A stretch of DNA of 61,090 nt, the filler included, from Asterionella formosa (lineage: Eukaryota), in the NCBI GenBank assembly GCA_002256025.1. It is 10 parts of 10 records of this genome, joined end to end, with 100 filler letters (N's around TTAATTAATTAA, not from the genome) between each part and the next. Parts side by side here need not be neighbours in the genome. Positions count along the whole stretch, not along the records: positions 18,379 to 24,401 come from NKIB01012849.1; 9 more parts are not named here. The stretch is one strand, 5' to 3'. A model generated the notes under the pieces. That model did not search any database. It had not been told where the DNA came from and saw only the letters and a list, made by a program, of their open reading frames with translations. Made by a program: the position numbers and the translations under genes. Below, in pieces: positions 666-26,916 of this stretch. Numbering within the stretch: the stretch's first letter is position 1; each line of letters opens with the position of its first letter.

Positions 666-3600
666 AACGTTGAAGTATTTTTTCAGTGCCAACTTGAACT
701 TGTTGACGTCGGCTTGGGTGCCGGTTACTGCGAGGTCATCGACGTAGGTGCATAGCAGTAGGGTAAGGATGCCTTCTCGTTTTTCGTAGAACACACAGGG
801 TTCGACACGGCTTTGTTTGAGTCTCATATCAAGTAGACAGTCTCGGAGTTTCTTGAACCATTGCCGAGCAGCTTGTACCGTGCCGTACATTGCCTTATCC
901 AGTCGGATGCAGTTGTCAGTCATAGTCGTTTCATTTTCGTAGTGGAAGTCAGCGATTCCATCTCGCCATTCTATGTAGATTTCTTCGTCGAGGTCGGCTT
1001 CGATGTCCACAATTTCAAATAAAAAATCTTTCCCGTGTATGGTGATTGCAAACACAATACGTAGGCCAGTATCCGTAACAACAGGTGCAAATGAATCTGT
1101 GAAGTCAACACCTGGTATCTGCAAGTAGCCTTTTACCACAATACAGCCCTTGTCGCGCGTAGTAGTGTTGTCGTGCTCGCTTTTTTTTTTAAATACCCAT
1201 TTTGCTCCAAGTGGCTTTTGTCCATTTAGATTCTTACGAGGATGTAGCTTCCACACTTTGCAGGAGTAGAAGTTTTCAATCTTTGCTTTGATTGCCTTGG
1301 TCCATTCGTCTTTTTTGTTACTTTATAGTGCCTGCTTGTAGCTCTTGGGTTCCATTGGGTCAGAAGCTAGGCTCGTTGAATGTGCTTCCTCACTAGGTTG
1401 GTGCTCTTTGAGGTTTTCGTTGGTGGCGTCATCCAAAATAAGTGTGCGTGCTGCGGATGATTGCTGATGTGTGTCTGCACGAGTAGGTGTAGGTGAGGTC
1501 ACAAAGCCTGTTGATAGCCTATTCATTTCTCGATCGAGCTTCGTATTCATGCCACCTGCGACGGAATCTGCAAAGCTCACTCCCTTGGGAGTACTGGGAT
1601 CGTCCGGTTTCATTGGTAGTAGGGTATCAGCCCCTGGTTCGTCAGGAGGTGTTGCGTTGGAAGGTTTAGTAAGAGTGTCAAATTCCTCATCTATACCGGA
1701 TCTGTCTGTGGTGAATTCGTCCATGTCCGATGTAGGTTTTACATTTCCATGCCAGTCGGCCCATTTAAGGCCTCTTGTGTTGAAGACCATTTTCGTAGCA
1801 ACGTTGTACATGCGGTAGGTATCACTGGCGTGGTCATGGCTGTAGCCAAGCATGACACATTTGACACTCTTTGGGGTTAATTTCTGCCTTGGCCTCCGAA
1901 TCGTGGCCCACCCCACCCTTCCAAACTGAAACAGGTGAGGATAAATCTTAGGCTGAAAGCCGTAGAAAAGCCAATCGGGGCATTTTTCTGTATTCGAGTT
2001 AGCGACAGAGTTTGTTAGTCGCATGTGCATTTTGACATTATTGGCCCACAGTAGCCCCTGGTATTTGTCTGACATTTTTGCGCTGAACATGGAGGCGCAT
2101 GCTCGGTCTTGTATCGTCAAAAATTTTCGTTCCACGACTCCGTTCTGTTGAGGAGTATGGGGGGCAGTATACTCAATCTGAATACCCTGCGTGGTGCAGA
2201 CGATACTTAGACTGGTCATGTTTTCACCGGCGTTGTCGCAGCATAGGAAGCTTACTACATAGCCCGCTGACTTGAGTGTAGTCAGTAGGGCATCCGCGAT
2301 GTTTGCCAAAAAACTCTTCTTGTTAACAAAAAAACTCCATGCCTTGCGTGTGTCTTGATCCACAAATAGAATCCAGTAGTTGCTTCCAATTAGAGATTTC
2401 TTGTAGGGACCTGAAATGTCCATGTACAATCGTTCAGCAGGAGTAGTGGCCTTGAGGGTCGTGACTTTAGGTACCGCTTTGGCCTTTGCCTTAGCTAGTG
2501 CGCAGCCTTCACACGACTGAATCTTGCCCGCAGGTTCAATACTGAGGGACTTTAGCGTTGCGCGAAGGGATGCCTCGCTGATGTGGCCGTATTTGTCGTG
2601 GGCCTCGTTGATGTCAATTTGCGTTGGTTTCTTGGTAGTTTTTGCTGTAGGAAGTTGCGTCACTGTCTTGGTAATCGTTGGAGTAGGATCGGCTGTACGG
2701 CTTGTTGTCAAGTCATGGATAGACAAGACCGTTTCGGATTGTAGGGTATGGTCTCCCTTGAAGTAGTAAAGGACGCCTTGATCCTCACAAGAAAAGGTAA
2801 GTTCGTTGTCGTACCCTTCCTCATGAAGACTCAACTCAGACCCCTTCATGCGTGCCTCGCACCCTCTGTTCTTGACAAATTGCCCGATACTGACTATATT
2901 CTTGTGGAAGTGTGGTGTGTAGAGTACCTTGCGTAGAAACATGGAACACGTTTTTGTTGGTAATCAGAATATCACCTCGTTTCGTGCATACCACCTCTTT
3001 ACTGTCATCAACAATGACCGAGACGTTGACATTTTCGACGTTTGTCATTTATTCGTCAGTCATAGTGATGTGCGTTATAGCCCCAATGTCCGCGAGCCAG
3101 CGCTCCGTTCCGTTGCTTGATGCGCAGTATTGGTCTTCGTACCACTCGTCTTCCATTGTAGGGACGAAATATACGCGTAGGAGTTCTTCAGTAGGAGTCT
3201 TGGTAGTATTCTGCATCATGTCCATGGTACCAGGGATAGCGTCCGTCGCCTCCATACTGGTAATTTCCTCGCACATTCCGACGTAGTACATGCCGGTTTC
3301 TTTTTTCTTCTCGCCGCGTAGTGCGCGTTTTGGTTCCGGGTAGTCTCCCGACACGGTATTTATTGCAATTATAGCACTTTCTTCATCTGATTTTTTTCGT
3401 TCGTGCCATTTGCATTCGTTCCGCTTGTGTTTGTTTGCCGCAGTTCTTGCAGATACCTTTGTATTTCTGTGTGAATAGGGCGATCTCCTTTGTGCTCTTC
3501 GTGCCCTTTAGCTTTCGTTTGTAGAATGCTCGGATCTTGCCTTTCAATTCGTTGAGGCTGATTGTTGTCATGCCCTCGACGACTGTAACAAGAACTGCGC

Positions 3601-18204: not shown

Positions 18205-19338
18205 TGAAACAATGAATTCTTAAGGCTAGAAAGTTGCGTTGTGACTGTCCCCTTCGAAGCGATCAGAATGCAACAATGNNNNNNNNNNNNNNNNNNNNNN
18301 NNNNNNNNNNNNNNNNNNNNNNTTAATTAATTAANNNNNNNNNNNNNNNNNNNNNNNNNNNNNNNNNNNNNNNNNNNNGCTGTTTTGAGTACTACGTACA
18401 TATGTAGGGTAAATGACTAGAATATTCATTAAGCACATAAACAATCGGAGCAAATTCTTGCCGCCAACATCAGATAGACCAATATCATCATTGGTCCAAA
18501 GAAATATGGACAATGCGAGTACATGAATACCACGAGAATACAAGCAATAAAACAACAGACTAAATCCAATTGACAATGAACTGCCAATGGCGTCATCAAT
18601 CAATTCATTTCGCTTTAGACTGGGCATGATGGACAATGATGGTATGGTGAAAGGTGAATTTCTGGAGTCATTTTTCATGTGACAAAGAAAAACGATGTGA
18701 AAAATAGATATATTTTAATCAAATCTGTAGATTATATAAAATGGCTTCCTTAAGTAGACCCCTTGCCAATTTCAGCTATCCCAGGGCTGAAAAACCGAGG
18801 GGCAATTGGTATAAATTGTCTTGTCAAAATGCGAATATATGAAATATCCAATATATAATTTGATGATGGGCAATATCAGACCAATCGCATATTTCGATGT
18901 GATGATAGGAAATATCTATAATTTTTTTATATGATGGGCAATGGCACCCTAAAAATGACATTTATGCTTTACTTGTGGGCAGTAGGTAAGTGAATGACAC
19001 AATGATAGTAGCTAGTTTGTGAGTTGCCTTAACAATAACCTACTTGGTGGCTACTTGCCTTCTCGTAGTCATGTGTACTTGGCTGGGATGGCACTCACAG
19101 GATGATCTTCTCATAGTGCTTGGGGTGCCACTCATATGGCCAACCTACTCATGCCACCCAGCCTCAGTGTATACTTGCAGGAAAGAGACCACCTCTGACA
19201 TGTTTTGCCTTCAGCAAAACCCCAGCATAGTACCTCTGGTTTCTTCATATGACTGCTAAAAAATCTGGTCTGGCAGCAAGCAAAGTTGCCTACAACTACA
19301 CTGCATGTTTGTTGCCCCATTAACAAAATGTTTTTAAG

Positions 19339-20793
19339 CTAGTAAATCTCAGTGTCTCTCTCCTCTGGTTGACCTGTATCCTCCTTTTTCTTGCGCTGTC
19401 GTGCCTTATTACGAGTCTTAGCCTTGGCCTTTTTGGAGGCAACCTCAGTAGCTTTGATTGCAGTCTTGGATTGGTTTCCATTCAATAATTCATCAAGCTT
19501 TAATTGGAGTCGTCTCCTAGCAATTTTGCGATTCTGTAATACGGATCGAGTATCATGACACTCAACTCGCAATTGAGTTGGTTTGTGCACCAGCACCACT
19601 TTATTCGAAGTCTTATTAACCTTCTGCCCCCCTGGGCCAGAGCCACGAACAAACGATTCCATCAGCTCGTCTTCTTTGAGCTCTGGGAGCTGATCATCGC
19701 GACGATATTCATTCTTATTTTTGACCTCGAGTCCATGCATAACGGAGGAAATCTCCATTAGAATGACGGGACGATAATTAGAATTAGGAAGGAAGGCCAC
19801 CAGTTCAGAGAAAAGGTCCAGATCACGAACATCAGTGGATGGCACCAGCAAGGAAGGAACTGGGCACACATCACTTCGCGCGTCTCGGAATAGTTGGAGA
19901 ACTGCATTCACATATCTCTCAATGTCATTCTTGTTAGGGAGTGCTTGATACAGTATCAAATCAGAGGAGAGCTCCTTCAGCGAAGCGAAACGATCCTGGC
20001 CCAGAATCAGCTGTATTCGGTTGGACACTTCAACCTGCCTTTGTCGACTGATTTCATCTTCTGAATCTTTTTTCTTCTTCCATTCAACGTAACTTGCCAT
20101 GACTTGAGTTATTGTCTCACCTCTGCCATTCATGGAACCAAAAACCCGGTCCAGTCGTTGTACTCGGTCCCAGACAATTTGTTCTTTGTATTTGATACCG
20201 ACAATTCTGTGTTCTGGAATAGCCATGGCTAGAAATTTTTCTTTTCCCGAAACCGAATTGTTTGGCGCGTCCATGGGAGACTCCATTACCTTGTCTTCAA
20301 CTCGATCGTAGTGCAAGACAGAAAAATCAGTTTTTGTGAGGGCACTGTCCCATTGTATTCGTCGCAAAATCTCAACAGCAGGCACCAGCTTAGTTTCCTT
20401 TTCTGAGTATGTGAAATTTTCTAGACCGGCAAACAATCTCAAATAAGCTGAACTGTTTACATCCTTAAGCTTGGCAAGTCTAGCGTCGACGCCTCGCAGG
20501 CCTCTGCCCAACGTTGAGGCTAGCGTCGCAATCGGTAGCTTTCGATTGTCGAATAGGTACCGATCCTGTTCCACCGTCCACGATTGATACAGATTTTCCA
20601 TGGGTACATTGGCACCTTTGTCCGAATATAACCGTGTCCGTCTGGGTACAGCCTTATTGGCGTTTGTTCCATGGTGAAAATGAAAATAACAGTATTTCGT
20701 GAAGGCTCCGACAAATGTGCGCCTCCCGGACAAAGAGACCGATAATATCATAATGCAATAGCCAGCTGAGAAGCAAAGAACGCTAGTCTTCAT
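19339..20793 (-). CDS. Fusion of MJ1316/DUF504 domain and GGQ peptidyl-tRNA hydrolase (C12orf65/mtRF-R-like), with an organelle presequence
   Basis: MJ1316-like ILRRIQWD..HYDRV..IPEHRI..IVWDR..RLD. C-terminal FVRGSGPGGQKVNKTSNKVVLVHKPT..ECHDTRS..QNRKIAR followed by a Lys/Arg-rich tail. Single 484-aa ORF. Confidence 0.85.
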   Translation of the reverse strand: MKTSVLCFSAGYCIMILSVSLSGRRTFVGAFTKYCYFHFHHGTNANKAVPRRTRLYSDKGANVPMENLYQSWTVEQDRYLFDNRKLPIATLASTLGRGLRGVDARLAKLKDVNSSAYLRLFAGLENFTYSEKETKLVPAVEILRRIQWDSALTKTDFSVLHYDRVEDKVMESPMDAPNNSVSGKEKFLAMAIPEHRIVGIKYKEQIVWDRVQRLDRVFGSMNGRGETITQVMASYVEWKKKKDSEDEISRQRQVEVSNRIQLILGQDRFASLKELSSDLILYQALPNKNDIERYVNAVLQLFRDARSDVCPVPSLLVPSTDVRDLDLFSELVAFLPNSNYRPVILMEISSVMHGLEVKNKNEYRRDDQLPELKEDELMESFVRGSGPGGQKVNKTSNKVVLVHKPTQLRVECHDTRSVLQNRKIARRRLQLKLDELLNGNQSKTAIKATEVASKKAKAKTRNKARQRKKKEDTGQPEERDTEIY

Positions 20794-21510
20794 AACAAAA
20801 CGAAGGTATTAAGTTGATGTACATAAAGCAAAGCGGCAGAAAATGACCGCCATGGTCGAATCAAGAATCCATCATCAAAAGAACAGCGAGCGAAGAAAAG
20901 GGACGAAGAACGTCTGATGAGCGATGCATGTGGTTACCAGTGTTAAAAAGGTCCGTATTCCTTCCCGGGAAGGTCCGGCCTCGANNNNNNNNNNNNNNNN
21001 NNNNNNNNNNNNNNNNNNNNNNNNNNNNNNNNNNNNNNNNNNNNNNNNNNNNNNNNNNNNNNNNNNNNNNNNNNNNNNNNNNNNNNNNNNNNNNNNNNNN
21101 NNNNNNNNNNNNNNNNNNNNNNNNNNNNNNNNNNNNNNNNNNNNNNNNNNNNNNNNNNNNNNNNNNNNNNNNNNNNNNNNNNNNNNNNNNNNNNNNNNNN
21201 NNNNNNNNNNNNNNNNNNNNNNNNNNNNNNNNNNNNNNNNNNNNNNNNNNNNNNNNNNNNNNNNNNNNNNNNNNNNNNNNNNNNNNNNNNNNNNNNNNNN
21301 NNNNNNNNNNNNNNNNNNNNNNNNNNNNNNNNNNNNNNNNNNNNNNNNNNNNNNNNNNNNNNNNNNNNNNNNNNNNNNNNNNNNNNNNNNNNNNNNNNNN
21401 NNNNNNNNNNNNNNNNNNNNNNNNNNNNNNNNNNNNNNNNNNNNNNNNNNNNNNNNNNNNNNNNNNNNNNNNNNNNNNNNNNNNNNNNNNATTTAGCGTT
21501 TGTTGATGCG

Positions 21511-21711
21511 ATGCGAAATTTCTAGTTCCCAAAAGAACAAGCAGTCGTGTTGTTCATGTCTATATGTAGTATGTCCTTTATCTTATACTGCAAATGACCT
21601 TCTCAAGATTCCATAGAAATATTAACCACAACAACTAGTGTGTACATGAAACTTGGTACATTTTTTGTCGTTGAGGGATTGAATTGCATTTTGAGATGTT
21701 GTGCCCTCTCC
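21511..21711 (+). repeat. Dispersed repeat, copy 2
   Basis: Collinear with 13142-13339. Confidence 0.8.
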
Positions 21712-22554
21712 GAGAATACTGTCCCTCAGGTTTTCTCGTCTATTTCTACAAAACATAGAAAACCTCATCTGTCAAAGTTATCAAACTAGGCATCATGAAC
21801 TCAAAACTGTCGCTACCTTGGTCATATCTTAAAAACTGAGCAAACGACGACGAAAACAAATTCTAGCAGCAATTTCTAATCTTGTTGTCAAACAAAGTAA
21901 GTCCAATAAATTTTATTACTATTGAACGATTTTTTCTTCTACACTATTCTAAATATACTTGCGAAATAGAAATTGTTCACTGTGGTCTTCATTGTGATAT
22001 TTCGTCATGATGGTCAAGGTGGACTTGCTATCTCATCATCCCCATACTAGCTACCACAGTACAAAATCAGATGTACGTACTGGTAGTTAGTCTTGTATGT
22101 ATGCCAAATAGATACAATTATCCGGTGTATATTAGCATGATTTGAACTGGTACCAGTAGTCCTAGTACGTATGGACATGTATGAAACCATGCAAAGGGTG
22201 ACATGTGCTGAGAATTGTCTAAGTATATTTATAGCATTTAGGTATGACATGCATCCTAATGCAGCAAGTGCCAGTATGTCATGACAAAGCTATAGTATTT
22301 AGGTATGACGTTATAATGCAGCAAGGTACCCCCAGTAAATCATGAAACCGAACTCCCGTTTTGCTGTCAATTTCAATGATGATACAAAAATTGTTTATAA
22401 TTTTCGATAATCGTTTTACTAAACAAAAAGAGTCTTTTAGAATTTTGTTAGGAAAATTTTCTATCATTGATAGCAGCAATTATTGATTTTTTAGATATTT
22501 AGTCAAAAAGGGTTGTCCCAAGTTCCCCGGACTAACTCATCATGCATTTTCAGA

Positions 22555-24065
22555 CACTTATACCCAACATCTGTGACTGCGGCCTTTAACTTGCTCACAA
22601 ACTGGAAGCAGGACGCTAGGTTCTCATGTGCACACCAAATTGACCCATCAATGATGGAGTATCCTTCACAAATGTGGAAGGAAGAACTAACAGAAAACGA
22701 TGTTTCACTTGTAAATAGTGGGCAAACAAAGTTAGCTGCTGGTAGTAGGGTCAGGTATCATATTTCATGCCACAAATGCGGTAAGCAAGGCCATTAGTAT
22801 GCTTACAAGTGTGATAATGAATGTCAAACCGGTGCAACTCTACTGCTATCGGGTATAGTAGACGGAGATTTTCGAAAAAGAACCGCAATTTCAATTCATG
22901 CAACACGCCGTAGAAGTATCATTGAAACTTGATGAAAATGGAAAAATTCTAAAGAGCTGGATCCTATTGGACAATCAGTCCACAGCAGTTGACGTGTTCT
23001 CCAACTCAAGTCTATTAAAGAAGAACATCGGGAAAAGTAAAAGCACATGGACAACATGATACACTGCAATGCAGGTGTGACTAGCTAGCTAATGCAAATA
23101 TGGTTGGTGATTTTCCAGGTTATGGAACTGTGTGGTATCACCCAGCAGAAATTGCAAACATATTGCTTGTCGCTGGCCACGGTGCAGGAGCATAGATCTC
23201 ACATCACCTATAACAGCAGAGAAGGCAACAAATTCACGATTTACAAGCCTGATGGAACAAGGAGGGTGTTCAGTCAGATTGCGGCTTTTTTTTGCCATAG
23301 ACAGTAGTGAGAATGCGGAAGAGGTTACTTTGGTTAATAAGGTAGACAATAACCGTTCTAACTTTATCAATCGTGACTAAGCAATCTCGCGCATTGTTAG
23401 CTTGTCAAATTCAGAAAATCATTAGAAGACCCCCCAGTACATGCATGTTCATTAAAATAGTTGACGACAGCCTCCTGCCAAATTGCCCAGTGAATCGAAA
23501 GTACATCATGATGGCTGAGGACATACTTGGGAAAGTGTCGGGTCAATGATGCAAAATCAACAAGCAATAACAATACTAACAGCAATTAGACACGTGAAAA
23601 GTGTCTACATGAAGTGCAGGTTTGAGCATTCCACACTATTGATGGATGACCAGTTCGAGTCCATTCAAGGTGATTTAGCAGAGATGCAAACTACTCTCAA
23701 CAAAGTATCAAGTGACAAGCATGTCCCAGAAGTGTAACGCTACATCCGGACCATTAAAGAGCGGGTGAGTTGCGTGTATGACACACTACCATTAAGGAGA
23801 ATGCCGGCCAGAATGAATATCGAAATGGTGTATTGCATTGTTTTCTTGCTCAATAGTTTTCGTGTATGGATGGGATATCTTCTACTCTTAGTCCCCATGC
23901 CATAGTGATTGGTTCTCAACTAGATTGCACAAAGCACTGTCAACTTGAGTTTGGAACATACGTGCAGGTGCATGAGGAACATGATGATTCTACGACAACC
24001 AGGACAATAGGGGCAATTGCATTACGACCAACTGGAAATGCAGAAGGTGGCAACTACTTCTATGT
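22555..24065 (+). mobile_element. Highly degenerate copia-type gag-protease-integrase remnant (family D)
   Basis: Fragments across frames: AAFNLLTNWK, CHKCGKQGH knuckle, WILLDNQST, HCNAGVT, GTVWYHP, KHVPEV*RYIRTIKERV, LEFGTYVQVHEE..RTIGAIALRPTGN. Confidence 0.85.
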
Positions 24066-24501
24066 ACATAATCATTTTTATAGCGCATTCTTTCTATTCT
24101 ATTTCTAGAGTTACTGTTAATGCACTGCTTCCTTCTTGTCTTTGATTGGGGATCCTGCTGCATCACCAGTTGCTCCACTATGTCCGCCAGCATCATCAGT
24201 GGTCATTTCACCACCACCTCCCATCCTTAACTTAAAACTTGAATGTTTCTTTATTGGTAATGTTGAATCCACAAGCTAAAGCTGTCGTCAGTTGTGCCAA
24301 TTTGACAACAACGGCCAGAGGACAGTCTACAGGGGAGGTTTTTCAATGTAAACCAGATTGTTAATAAAGAATGAGCGTGAGCAAAGCGCATGTCATGAAC
24401 GNNNNNNNNNNNNNNNNNNNNNNNNNNNNNNNNNNNNNNNNNNNNTTAATTAATTAANNNNNNNNNNNNNNNNNNNNNNNNNNNNNNNNNNNNNNNNNNN
24501 N

Positions 24502-26916
24502 CAGCAGCAACGACCTCGCATAGTCGAGCACGTGGATAGTGACGATGACGAAGAAATTGATGAAGATGAGGCCTTCAATTCCGAAGATGAGCGCCGATAT
24601 GGCTCCTTCTTCTCGAGCAAGAATAGCAACAAGGAAGGACGAGGCGAGGAGAGTGAGGAAGACTCTGATGACATTGCATCATCCGATGACAGTAGTGAAG
24701 AAGGAGATGGAGGACAGTACATGTTGGATTTATTAAATAAACTTGACAGCGCTACCACTGCCGAGACACCTCATGCTCTGGCGTCACACCTGAAAGAATC
24801 AGAATACTCTTCCTCCGTCGTTACATCGACGCTCACCATGGACGCTCTCATGAATGGTCTACAAGATACACATGGCTTTGGTAAGATGCAATCCACCATG
24901 GACAAATTATCCAAGGGAAGGACAACCTCCACCCCTGTTGCCAGGATCGTCTCAGATCGGGCCCAACGAAAAGTGCACTACGAAGACTCGACGGAACAAG
25001 TCACACAATGGATTGATGCCGTACAAGAGAATCGACAGGCGGAAACACTTGATTTTCGTCCACGAGGCATCAATGTACTTTCCAAGCATGCCCTAGTTGG
25101 GAAGTTTAAACCAACGACTGACTTTGAAAAGGAATTAGCTGAAGCATTGACACAAGCTGGTCAGCAAGATGAAGCAAGTATGCTCAAGGCAGAACAACAA
25201 ATGATGGATGACTTGGGGAATAATGAAATTACCATGGAGGCCTACAAAGAACGTCGGGGGGAGTTGGCCAAATTACGAGCCCTAATGTTTTACCACGAAC
25301 AAAAACGTCATCACATGAATAAAATCAAGTCAAAAAAGTACCGGCGTATCCGTAAGAAGCAAAGGGAACGTGCCAAGGATGGTGAATTGGAGGCCAATAT
25401 TCAAGATGATCCAACTCTACAACAAGAATTGGACGAAAAGGAAGAATTGGACCGCATGCGGGAGCGAGCATCGTTGGCGCACAAAAATACATCCAAATGG
25501 GCAAAGCGTATTTTGAAACGTGGCAAGCATGTCGACCAAGATACGAGGCGGGCTTTGTCAGCGCAGTTGAAAAGGGGCGAGGATTTAAGAAATAAAATGA
25601 ATGGCACTGGTGACAGCGATGATGATGGCGATGAAAATGAAGATTTGGTGGAGACAGCAAAAAGGATTCTACAAGAGACGGAAGGCGAAGCAATTTCTGC
25701 CAAGCAAAGCAAGGGACTTTTTGCTTTGTCCTTCATGCAAAAGGGTGTGGAAAAGCAGAGACAGCAGGCTAAGGAAGAAGCGAGAATACTCCTGCAAGAA
25801 CTAGAAGCAAATGCGCAACACGCCGGTGCGGACGAGCAAAGTGAAGTGGAGCAGAAACCGAAGAGGGCGAAAAAGGCTTCATCGGCTGAAGAAATCAAGC
25901 ATATCTTGGGCGACGGCAAGCTGGTGGCAACTTCCTTGGATTTTGGAAACTCCAATTCAATCTCTGTAAGTGGCGGCATCAACATTGATTTGGGTAGCGG
26001 TCGCAACAGTGAAAATGGTGATGTAGAGCTGAGTTCTAGGACCAGACCGCATACAAGTACTTTTGAAGTGAGTGTGCAAGCCACAGATACCGAGAAGATT
26101 TTCTTAAAGGCAACTGATGAAGACCATACAAATCCTGTAAAAAAGAATGCATCGTCATCCACTTCTGCCATGACGAAAATGAACGAAGACGAGTCTAACC
26201 CATGGTTGGCAGCAACGAACGATTCCAATACAGCTATTACAGAACCTAGAAATAAGAAGAAACGCAAAACATCGGGTTTCAATAAAAAAGGAGTCGTTGA
26301 TGTTGTCGGCGCGGTCGATTTGTTCACGGACAATTTGCCCATGGAAGCGCACAACAAAGCAACGAAAGGAAAACCATCCACGAATTCTACCAACATTGCT
26401 TCCCTGACACAGGAAGAACTTGTTCGCCGTGCATTTTCAGCCCCCACTGATACAGAAGTCGAAGAGGACTTCGCGAAGGAAAAGGCCGAAGCAATGGACC
26501 GTGACGACCCAACACGCACAAAGAAGGATGTACCCAAGACGTCCAATGGGTGGGGCTCTTGGGCCGGAGCGGGCGCTCCCCCTTCAAAACCTCCCCGTAA
26601 GATTCCTAAAAAGTTGCAAGCCCCCGAAAATGCGCTTCCCAAGCGAAAGCGAGCCGACGATAAGAAACCGCTTGTCATCATCAATGAGAAGCGTATCAAA
26701 AAAACTGCCGGTAGCTTTCAGATTGCCAATATTCCTTATCCTTACACAAGCCGCCAAGAGTATGAGCGGGCCATGACGGGCGCTGTGGGAAAGGAATGGA
26801 ATGTGACTAGTGCCGTTAAGAACATGACTCGTCCTGAGATCATAACACGGGCTGGGAAGATGATTCAACCTCTCTCAAAGCGCGTTAAGGCTCCAAGACC
26901 AGCTGCAAAGTTCTAA
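24502..26916 (+). CDS. UTP14: U3 snoRNA-associated protein 14 (5' truncated at the scaffold edge)
   Basis: LAKLRALMFYHEQK..KIKSKKYRRI, ERASLAHKNTSKWAK, GWGSWAGAG, VIINEKR, PYPY..YER..GKEWN. Confidence 0.95.
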   Translation, partial: QQQRPRIVEHVDSDDDEEIDEDEAFNSEDERRYGSFFSSKNSNKEGRGEESEEDSDDIASSDDSSEEGDGGQYMLDLLNKLDSATTAETPHALASHLKESEYSSSVVTSTLTMDALMNGLQDTHGFGKMQSTMDKLSKGRTTSTPVARIVSDRAQRKVHYEDSTEQVTQWIDAVQENRQAETLDFRPRGINVLSKHALVGKFKPTTDFEKELAEALTQAGQQDEASMLKAEQQMMDDLGNNEITMEAYKERRGELAKLRALMFYHEQKRHHMNKIKSKKYRRIRKKQRERAKDGELEANIQDDPTLQQELDEKEELDRMRERASLAHKNTSKWAKRILKRGKHVDQDTRRALSAQLKRGEDLRNKMNGTGDSDDDGDENEDLVETAKRILQETEGEAISAKQSKGLFALSFMQKGVEKQRQQAKEEARILLQELEANAQHAGADEQSEVEQKPKRAKKASSAEEIKHILGDGKLVATSLDFGNSNSISVSGGINIDLGSGRNSENGDVELSSRTRPHTSTFEVSVQATDTEKIFLKATDEDHTNPVKKNASSSTSAMTKMNEDESNPWLAATNDSNTAITEPRNKKKRKTSGFNKKGVVDVVGAVDLFTDNLPMEAHNKATKGKPSTNSTNIASLTQEELVRRAFSAPTDTEVEEDFAKEKAEAMDRDDPTRTKKDVPKTSNGWGSWAGAGAPPSKPPRKIPKKLQAPENALPKRKRADDKKPLVIINEKRIKKTAGSFQIANIPYPYTSRQEYERAMTGAVGKEWNVTSAVKNMTRPEIITRAGKMIQPLSKRVKAPRPAAKF

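Follow-up and report, generated by a model that had tools for sequence, protein, structure and literature searches.

A C12orf65/mtRF-R-type GGQ domain joined to Myb-like, MJ1316 and helical domains in a gene of the diatom Asterionella formosa

Gene and domain order at the locus

The window analysed here, a stretch of 61,090 nucleotides (filler included) composed of ten parts of ten records of the Asterionella formosa assembly GCA_002256025.1, carries a nuclear gene of this freshwater diatom whose predicted product joins a release-factor-type GGQ domain to a conserved front module. The gene lies on the minus strand in the part derived from NKIB01012849.1 (positions 18,379 to 24,401 of the window) and consists of a single intron-free open reading frame (ORF) of 484 codons with an ATG start and no internal stop. 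A first-pass annotation, made before any database search, had described four parts in order within one intron-free ORF: a hydrophobic leader ending in VGA-F together with a basic transit-like stretch, a Myb/helix-turn-helix (HTH) three-helix unit, an MJ1316/DUF504-like domain at about 20380-20140, and a GGQ domain with a basic tail and no codon-recognition domains. All four were recovered at or near the proposed coordinates (Table 1). Specifically, the leader and its basic stretch are present with F31 at the junction, the PF04457 profile matched the region of residues ~135-220 suggested for MJ1316, and RF-1 was the only family detected at the C-terminal end, where the lysine- and arginine-rich (K/R-rich) tail is also found. 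A fifth part had been overlooked, namely the 140-residue stretch between MJ1316 and the GGQ domain, which is a folded helical domain.

Table 1. Coordinates of the gene, the parts of its protein and the RNA contigs that cover it (positions along the window).
Feature	Position	Strand	Remarks
Whole ORF	19339..20793	-	484 amino acids; stop codon 19339-19341; identical 484-amino-acid protein P0002 in public collection
Hydrophobic signal-like leader, residues 1-30	20704..20793	-	Ends in VGA, F31 next (ASAFAP-like junction); 10-residue hydrophobic window 2.28, then A-F
Basic transit-peptide-like stretch, residues 31-64	20602..20703	-	Poorly conserved; net charge +5; variable in 20-sequence alignment
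Myb/SANT-like HTH unit, residues 65-121	20431..20601	-	Conserved; begins at invariant M65
MJ1316 domain, residues 138-210	20164..20382	-	PF04457, E 8.3e-15, 55.7 bits vs cut-off 26.3, model positions 3-75 of 75
Five-helix domain, PAH(ZNF598)/harmonin-homology-like, residues 228-367	19693..20112	-	Confident model
RF-1 peptidyl-tRNA hydrolase domain, residues 371-469	19387..19683	-	PF00472, E 6.3e-21, 74.9 bits vs cut-off 35
GGQ catalytic motif, G388 G389 Q390	19624..19632	-	Invariant in 20/20 aligned homologues
K/R-rich C-terminal tail with short acidic end, residues 440-484	19342..19476	-	Aligned to human mtRF-R tail up to residue 153
Transcribed span	19100..20863	-	5' leader to ~20842-20863; 3' untranslated region to at least 19100; RNA contigs without joints
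RNA contigs X1 and X2 (1818, 1832 nt)	19100-20842	-	
RNA contig X3	19336-20842	-	
RNA contig X5	19430-20863	-	

RNA data from four library runs, taken from two studies on samples from lakes or algae and including two polyA-selected runs, provided four contigs of 1818, 1832, 1507 and 1434 nt that are colinear with the ORF, with no joint, no indel and 1-3 base differences. These contigs show the complete set of domains on one continuous, unspliced stretch present in RNA libraries, which is distinct from a proof of transcription or of true transcript ends. The single transcript expected by the first-pass annotation is thus what the contigs display, all domains being located on one uninterrupted contig with no sign of two genes. 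Likewise, RF-1 and MJ1316 are both present in 119 of the best 120 listed homologues, among 393 proteins matching at E <= 0.001 in the protein collection, and the exception is a 286-amino-acid fragment. Considering the unbroken ORF, the joint-free contigs that cover all domains, and the same domain order in these homologues, which come from many contigs and transcriptomes, it is hardly conceivable that two adjacent genes or a chance ORF were mistaken for one gene; no point supporting such an artefact was found in the analysis, and it is refuted as far as the contigs can show.

A short upstream ORF (20808-20852, minus strand; ATG, 14 codons, TAA) terminates ahead of the main ORF, in the 5' leader. 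Contig X5, which extends to 20863, holds this ORF, and the three other contigs stop at 20842, within it. Upstream of the gene there is a run of N's (20985-21490, 506 bases) and downstream a shorter one near 18331-18380, because of which the promoter region and the next upstream gene are unreadable.

The GGQ domain, the front module and their relatives

The homologues identified in the collection search include proteins from Fistulifera solaris, Attheya, Amphora coffeaeformis, Cylindrotheca fusiformis and a name beginning with 'Thala', as well as from Corethron hystrix and the bolidophyte Triparma retinervis. The fusion is therefore old and has been retained across diatoms as well as in at least one sister lineage. 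Residue conservation was obtained from a 20-sequence alignment, in which the first 64 residues vary freely and conservation starts exactly at the invariant M65. This methionine (20599-20601) is found in 20/20 homologues, and several public gene models begin precisely there; it could represent a second start yielding a leaderless form, or merely a structural residue.

Regarding the C-terminal part, the family profile matched human mtRF-R/C12orf65 (7a5h chain C) in the PDB with E 5.8e-33 and the mouse protein (2rsm) with E 2.7e-27. When the single sequence was used, residues 369-470 aligned with residues 52-153 of mtRF-R without a gap, basic tail included (7a5h_C, E 5.5e-24). Chains of RF1 and RF2 appeared in the profile search at E 1e-14 or weaker (about 1e-12) and were matched through the GGQ domain only, while ArfB and ICT1 were reached at E 8e-4 to 0.05 over the GGQ stretch alone (profile positions 369-405). 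The chain 7a5h_C is the best PDB relative, with an E-value over 18 orders of magnitude lower than those of RF1/RF2 and a far larger lead over ICT1/ArfB. Additionally, solved chains annotated as 'release factor H' matched the GGQ part (9mor_A, E 2.7e-10; 7sa4_8, E 8e-8). The first-pass annotation had placed the protein among the small codon-independent rescue hydrolases; this was right, and the profile E-values together with the ungapped alignment through the tail allow the GGQ part to be assigned more narrowly to the C12orf65/mtRF-R type and not to ICT1/ArfB. The following sequence features of that subfamily are found here: an intact GGQ, no PxT/SPF codon-recognition or GTPase-interacting domains, no inserted helix, and a basic C-terminal extension. 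No third Pfam family, a codon-recognition domain included, was detected in the protein at E up to 1. In the alignment, G384, G386, G388-G389-Q390 and many other residues of the GGQ domain are conserved, followed by the basic tail with the conserved K/R columns K454, K455, K459, R461, R465 and K469. The protein is a predicted peptidyl-tRNA hydrolase.

Shorter, stand-alone GGQ forms were looked for among 10 of the 120 listed matches. The 8 with the highest rank retain the helical-domain end, which identifies them as fragments of fused proteins. Two small proteins, P0289 and P0293 (the latter from Tetraparma), do not have the helical-domain end and may be plain GGQ forms or cut gene models.

The front module was modelled with AlphaFold2, giving a predicted local distance difference test score (pLDDT) of 92.4 for the HTH unit together with MJ1316 and of 90.6 for the middle region; Foldseek returned no PDB match at E <= 0.001 for either model. 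The HTH unit, in which the segment WTVEQDRYLF...RLAKL (residues 72-109) marks the start of the conserved core, was modelled at high confidence as three helices in a helix-turn-helix fold, and Y69, W72, D77, L80, G96-R97-G98 and R105 are conserved in it. The protein itself has no Pfam Myb match at E up to 1, and the profile of a sister family, which ends in a HAD-type domain (see below), matches v-Myb, c-Myb and B-Myb at E 5.4e-4 to 5e-3. The Myb/HTH assignment of the first-pass annotation is consequently backed at the level of the fold and by the profile match of the sister family. Myb repeats contain three tryptophans at a set spacing, and W72, the sole invariant tryptophan of the unit, presumably occupies the first of these positions.

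The MJ1316 domain presents an alpha-beta fold with pLDDT 95-98 over model residues 71-140, and its Pfam range agrees with the location originally proposed. Conserved positions comprise P138, R144, D149, F157, D163-R164, N178, P193-E194-H195-R196-I197, W208-D209, R213 and D215. The residues R..WD, DR, E, P.HRI, K, WD and R.D are shared with MJ1316 proteins fused to 2H phosphoesterases, and a comparison of 15 MJ1316 sequences including 2H-fused ones gave R, D, F, Y, DR, E, P.HRI, K, VW and R.D as invariant or nearly so. When residues 65-215 were searched against PDB sequences, no match had an E-value under 1.2. Based on the company it keeps in other proteins, the domain may read RNA ends bearing 2',3'-cyclic phosphate.

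The middle domain, in which Y235, W238, L264-G265, Y294, F302 and S329 are conserved, appears to be related to the PAH domain of ZNF598, a sensor of collided ribosomes, through a relative. This relative, P0263, is a protein of 261 amino acids composed of a leader, MJ1316 and the helical domain only; it aligns to residues 132-363 of our protein at E 4e-22, and its helical domain matches the ZNF598 PAH family PF23202 at E 2.8e-9. Since PF23202 was matched by 4 of the 56 family members scanned and the sequence of our protein did not reach E 1, we use the name 'PAH-like' and claim no family membership. The ESM Atlas gave no usable match for residues 225-368 and, for P0263, merely an MJ1316 cluster at 0.87.

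Relatives of the front module were searched with residues 65-370 against 1.84 billion representatives, which resulted in 526 matches at E <= 0.001. From the 150 listed, 60 were picked among the lower ranks for a domain scan. Among these, 33 carry MJ1316 alone, 15 combine MJ1316 with RF-1, and one has RF-1 alone; six pair MJ1316 with an AKAP7-type 2H phosphoesterase domain, some of them also with RWD. The remaining combinations were RWD + CCCH + MJ1316 (one protein), CIA30 + MJ1316 (two), MJ1316 + ZNF598 PAH (one), and MJ1316 + a weak NT5C match (one). Many of the proteins scored as MJ1316 alone have the HTH unit and, instead of GGQ, a terminal domain starting with CDLDGVLADF (HAD-type). The HTH and CDLDGVLADF motifs occur together in at least 8 of the 150 listed representatives (P0173, P0180, P0187, P0199, P0205, P0207, P0209 and P0213), and the profile of this sister family weakly matches HAD-family 5'(3')-deoxyribonucleotidases (cdN), at E 4.6e-3 to 0.04. 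By eye, most of the printed HAD-ended sequences begin with acidic or polar residues and not with a hydrophobic leader. The existence of the HAD-ended sister family beside the GGQ family indicates that the HTH + MJ1316 unit has been re-used with different effectors, and, judging by their domain families, several partner effectors act on a phosphate at nucleotide or RNA ends. In P0210 and P0242, MJ1316 is situated behind CIA30, a complex I assembly factor family (E 1.6e-23 and 4.8e-22), with an HTH-like unit between the two domains in P0210; this fusion may represent another organelle-flavoured context for MJ1316.

The neighbouring genes in the window are ordinary nuclear ones and encode Utp14, an annexin, a GH28 hydrolase, a cohesin-type protein and CLPTM1. 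The full-length Utp14 gene (24721-26916, plus strand, E 9.9e-134) contains on the opposite strand a 426-amino-acid ORF (25401-26681, minus strand) whose presence is most likely a mere consequence of the coding frame. Another ORF, of 539 amino acids (1323-2942, minus strand), bears a retroviral-polymerase SH3-like domain (E 4.7e-10) and is probably a retrotransposon remnant.

Destination and proposed mode of action

In diatoms, cleavage of a signal peptide in front of a phenylalanine is a hallmark of plastid import, and the junction in our protein reads ...ILSVSLSGRRTFVGA/FTKY..., where the slash precedes F31. The leaders of 121 homologues were reduced to 78 distinct N-terminal extensions after dropping those with no core-start motif, with fewer than 35 residues or with a first residue other than M, as well as duplicates. 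A hydrophobic 10-residue window of at least 1.8 was present in 45 of the 78. According to a crude motif count of our own, which is not equivalent to SignalP, ASAFind or HECTAR, 37 of those 45 contain [ASGC]-F in the next 24 residues, compared with 12.3 +/- 3.0 (maximum 24) in 500 shuffles of the tails. Many orthologue leaders thus look like the bipartite signals of diatom plastids. On this basis the plastid is the probable destination, and import into both organelles or into the mitochondrion only each seems rather unlikely.

The overall interpretation, to which we assign a probability of about three in four, is that the protein is imported into an organelle, that the front module binds RNA, and perhaps a partner protein, on a stalled ribosome or a split large subunit, and that the mtRF-R-type GGQ domain hydrolyses peptidyl-tRNA. 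In this outline the protein would be targeted to an organelle, most likely the plastid, and would hydrolyse peptidyl-tRNA independently of codons as a member of the C12orf65/mtRF-R type, and the 300-residue front module (HTH, MJ1316 and PAH-like) would serve as the substrate finder. The ligand of the module would be a tRNA, an rRNA or the end of a cleaved RNA, and perhaps in addition a protein, either ribosomal or a partner. The GGQ loop would be placed in the peptidyl-transferase centre of an organellar ribosome that has stalled or, in analogy to human mtRF-R, of a split large subunit still holding peptidyl-tRNA, where it would hydrolyse the ester bond and free the nascent chain. The substrate proposed here is suggested by that analogy. 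The human mtRF-R and MTRES1 were found jointly on split large subunits, which retained peptidyl-tRNA after elongation stalling, and in vitro mtRF-R had no release activity on standard substrates, according to a review (PMC8786322). Since this work, which is later than 2019, puts human mtRF-R on split large subunits and not on non-stop ribosomes, the most likely substrate changes accordingly.

Several observations weigh against this interpretation, and most of them concern the destination. The leader evidence is the motif count described above, 33 of the 78 leaders have no strong hydrophobic window, and some orthologue leaders are rich in R and S with no hydrophobic core, resembling mitochondrial presequences. 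Moreover, C12orf65 was described by Duarte et al. 2012 (PMC3472500) as mitochondrial and present in all eukaryotic groups except Viridiplantae. As to the front module, no clear structural neighbour was obtained for the MJ1316 part when modelled together with the HTH unit, no solved structure was found, and our literature search retrieved no experimental paper on MJ1316. The points on the leader and on C12orf65 could be accommodated by an ordinary mitochondrial mtRF-R of a diatom, whose leader is not a plastid signal and whose extra domains are a lineage-specific decoration; consistent with it, the shorter matches nearest to the GGQ part are incomplete members of the fused family, with no separate plain diatom copy among them. 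The excess of [ASGC]-F after the hydrophobic stretch (37 observed against 12.3 expected) argues in the opposite direction, and we regard the purely mitochondrial explanation as improbable.

Within the favoured outline, two versions of what the front module does compete, are not mutually exclusive, and are each held only tentatively. In one of them, put forward in the first-pass annotation, MJ1316 would bind a nuclease-made 2',3'-cyclic-phosphate end on an mRNA, tRNA or rRNA and would recruit or license the GGQ domain, so that release would be specific to nuclease damage. What points to such a coupling of cut-RNA sensing to peptide release is domain co-occurrence: MJ1316 occurs with RNA-end enzymes (AKAP7-type 2H in 6/60 of the proteins scanned, one RWD + CCCH, one weak NT5C), the HAD nucleotidase-like sister family exists, and the polar residues conserved in the MJ1316 domains of RNA-end enzymes are retained in our protein. 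A bacterial parallel is offered by the PrfH release factor linked to the RtcB ligase, with release factor H chains matching the GGQ part at E 2.7e-10, and the same proposal is in print for a C12orf65-like + MJ1316 fusion (PMC6514570). However, cyclic-phosphate binding by MJ1316 is itself a computational prediction for which the literature search found no experiment, our protein has no ligase, kinase or phosphoesterase domain detectable in Pfam at E up to 1, and human mtRF-R is described as acting after stalling by aminoacyl-tRNA shortage, with no known RNA cut (PMC8786322). In the other version, the front module would act in cis as MTRES1 (human) or Hsp15/RqcP (bacteria) act in trans, holding the P-site tRNA and rRNA on the split large subunit to give the GGQ domain access to the ester bond, and MJ1316 would be a general RNA-binding domain and no damage reader. 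The fold matches that could have supported this role are weak. Those trans-acting partners share an S4-like fold type, and no S4-like domain was detected in our protein in Pfam at E up to 1.

A broader and more speculative possibility, which we consider rather improbable, is that diatoms and bolidophytes possess a portable 'RNA-state reader' cassette (Myb-like HTH + MJ1316, often PAH-like) that is plugged either into a plastid GGQ hydrolase or into a mostly leaderless HAD phosphatase, the plastid form being a complete one-protein ribosome quality control acting on cut RNA. If this were true, the plastid form would constitute a one-protein counterpart of mtRF-R+MTRES1 or PrfH+RtcB; to our knowledge, no such pathway has been described in that organelle.

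The gene for mtRF-R/C12orf65 is a human disease gene. The one setting in which its mechanism has been solved is the split mitochondrial large subunit, where it works with a separate partner, as summarized in the review cited above (PMC8786322). With its self-contained RNA-binding and helical domains and its probable plastid destination, the Asterionella protein could provide a natural experiment on how an mtRF-R-type hydrolase finds its substrate. The gene also offers the most direct handle we have seen for probing what MJ1316 binds, and it would raise the question by which means, other than transfer-messenger RNA (tmRNA) and SmpB, stalled ribosomes are cleared in secondary plastids; both of these factors have been reported for stramenopiles (PMC6514570).

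Comparison with known systems

The architecture had already been catalogued, which answers a question left by the first-pass annotation: a fusion of a C12orf65-like domain with MJ1316 was published by Burroughs and Aravind in 2019 (PMC6514570, section 2.5, Fig. 4C), who proposed that release is coupled to organellar RNA repair. The two domains and the functional proposal are the same, and our gene is one instance of that fusion; since the fusion is already in print, the gene itself is no discovery, and the damage-coupled interpretation is plausible and already published. The text on this fusion assigns it to no lineage and mentions no HTH unit, helical domain or plastid leader, any of which the figure or the supplement may show.

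When compared to human mtRF-R, which was observed with MTRES1 on the split mitochondrial large subunit (7a5h chain C), the likeness lies in a GGQ hydrolase with no codon-recognition domains, ungapped over 102 residues. In contrast to the human protein of 166 amino acids, the diatom protein adds about 300 conserved residues (HTH, MJ1316 and helical domain) and a leader that looks plastid-type. ArfB (YaeJ) and ICT1 (mL62) are alike in outline, with a stand-alone GGQ domain, a basic tail and codon-independent release. According to PMC6514570, ICT1 and class-1 ArfB have an extra helix and C12orf65 does not, and our protein aligns to C12orf65 with no insertion.

Likewise, the MJ1316 part resembles that of the RWD-CCCH-MJ1316-2H phosphoesterase proteins (AKAP7_NLS type, the group exemplified by LENG9 in the first-pass annotation), with which it shares the conserved R..WD, DR, E, P.HRI, WD and R.D, whereas the effector is a 2H phosphoesterase in those proteins and a GGQ hydrolase in ours. 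The ZNF598 PAH domain (PF23202) is similar to the middle domain by way of P0263 and differs in that the sequence from the window has no match of its own to it at E 1. Finally, the bacterial PrfH (RFH)-RtcB system also involves a paralogue of release factors for which a link to RNA repair has been proposed, and RFH chains match the GGQ part. In that system, however, the components are separate genes in an operon with no MJ1316, and PrfH reportedly retains a version of the codon-recognition domain (printed as 'anticodon recognition domain'), while in the diatom protein the GGQ hydrolase and MJ1316 are joined in a single chain.

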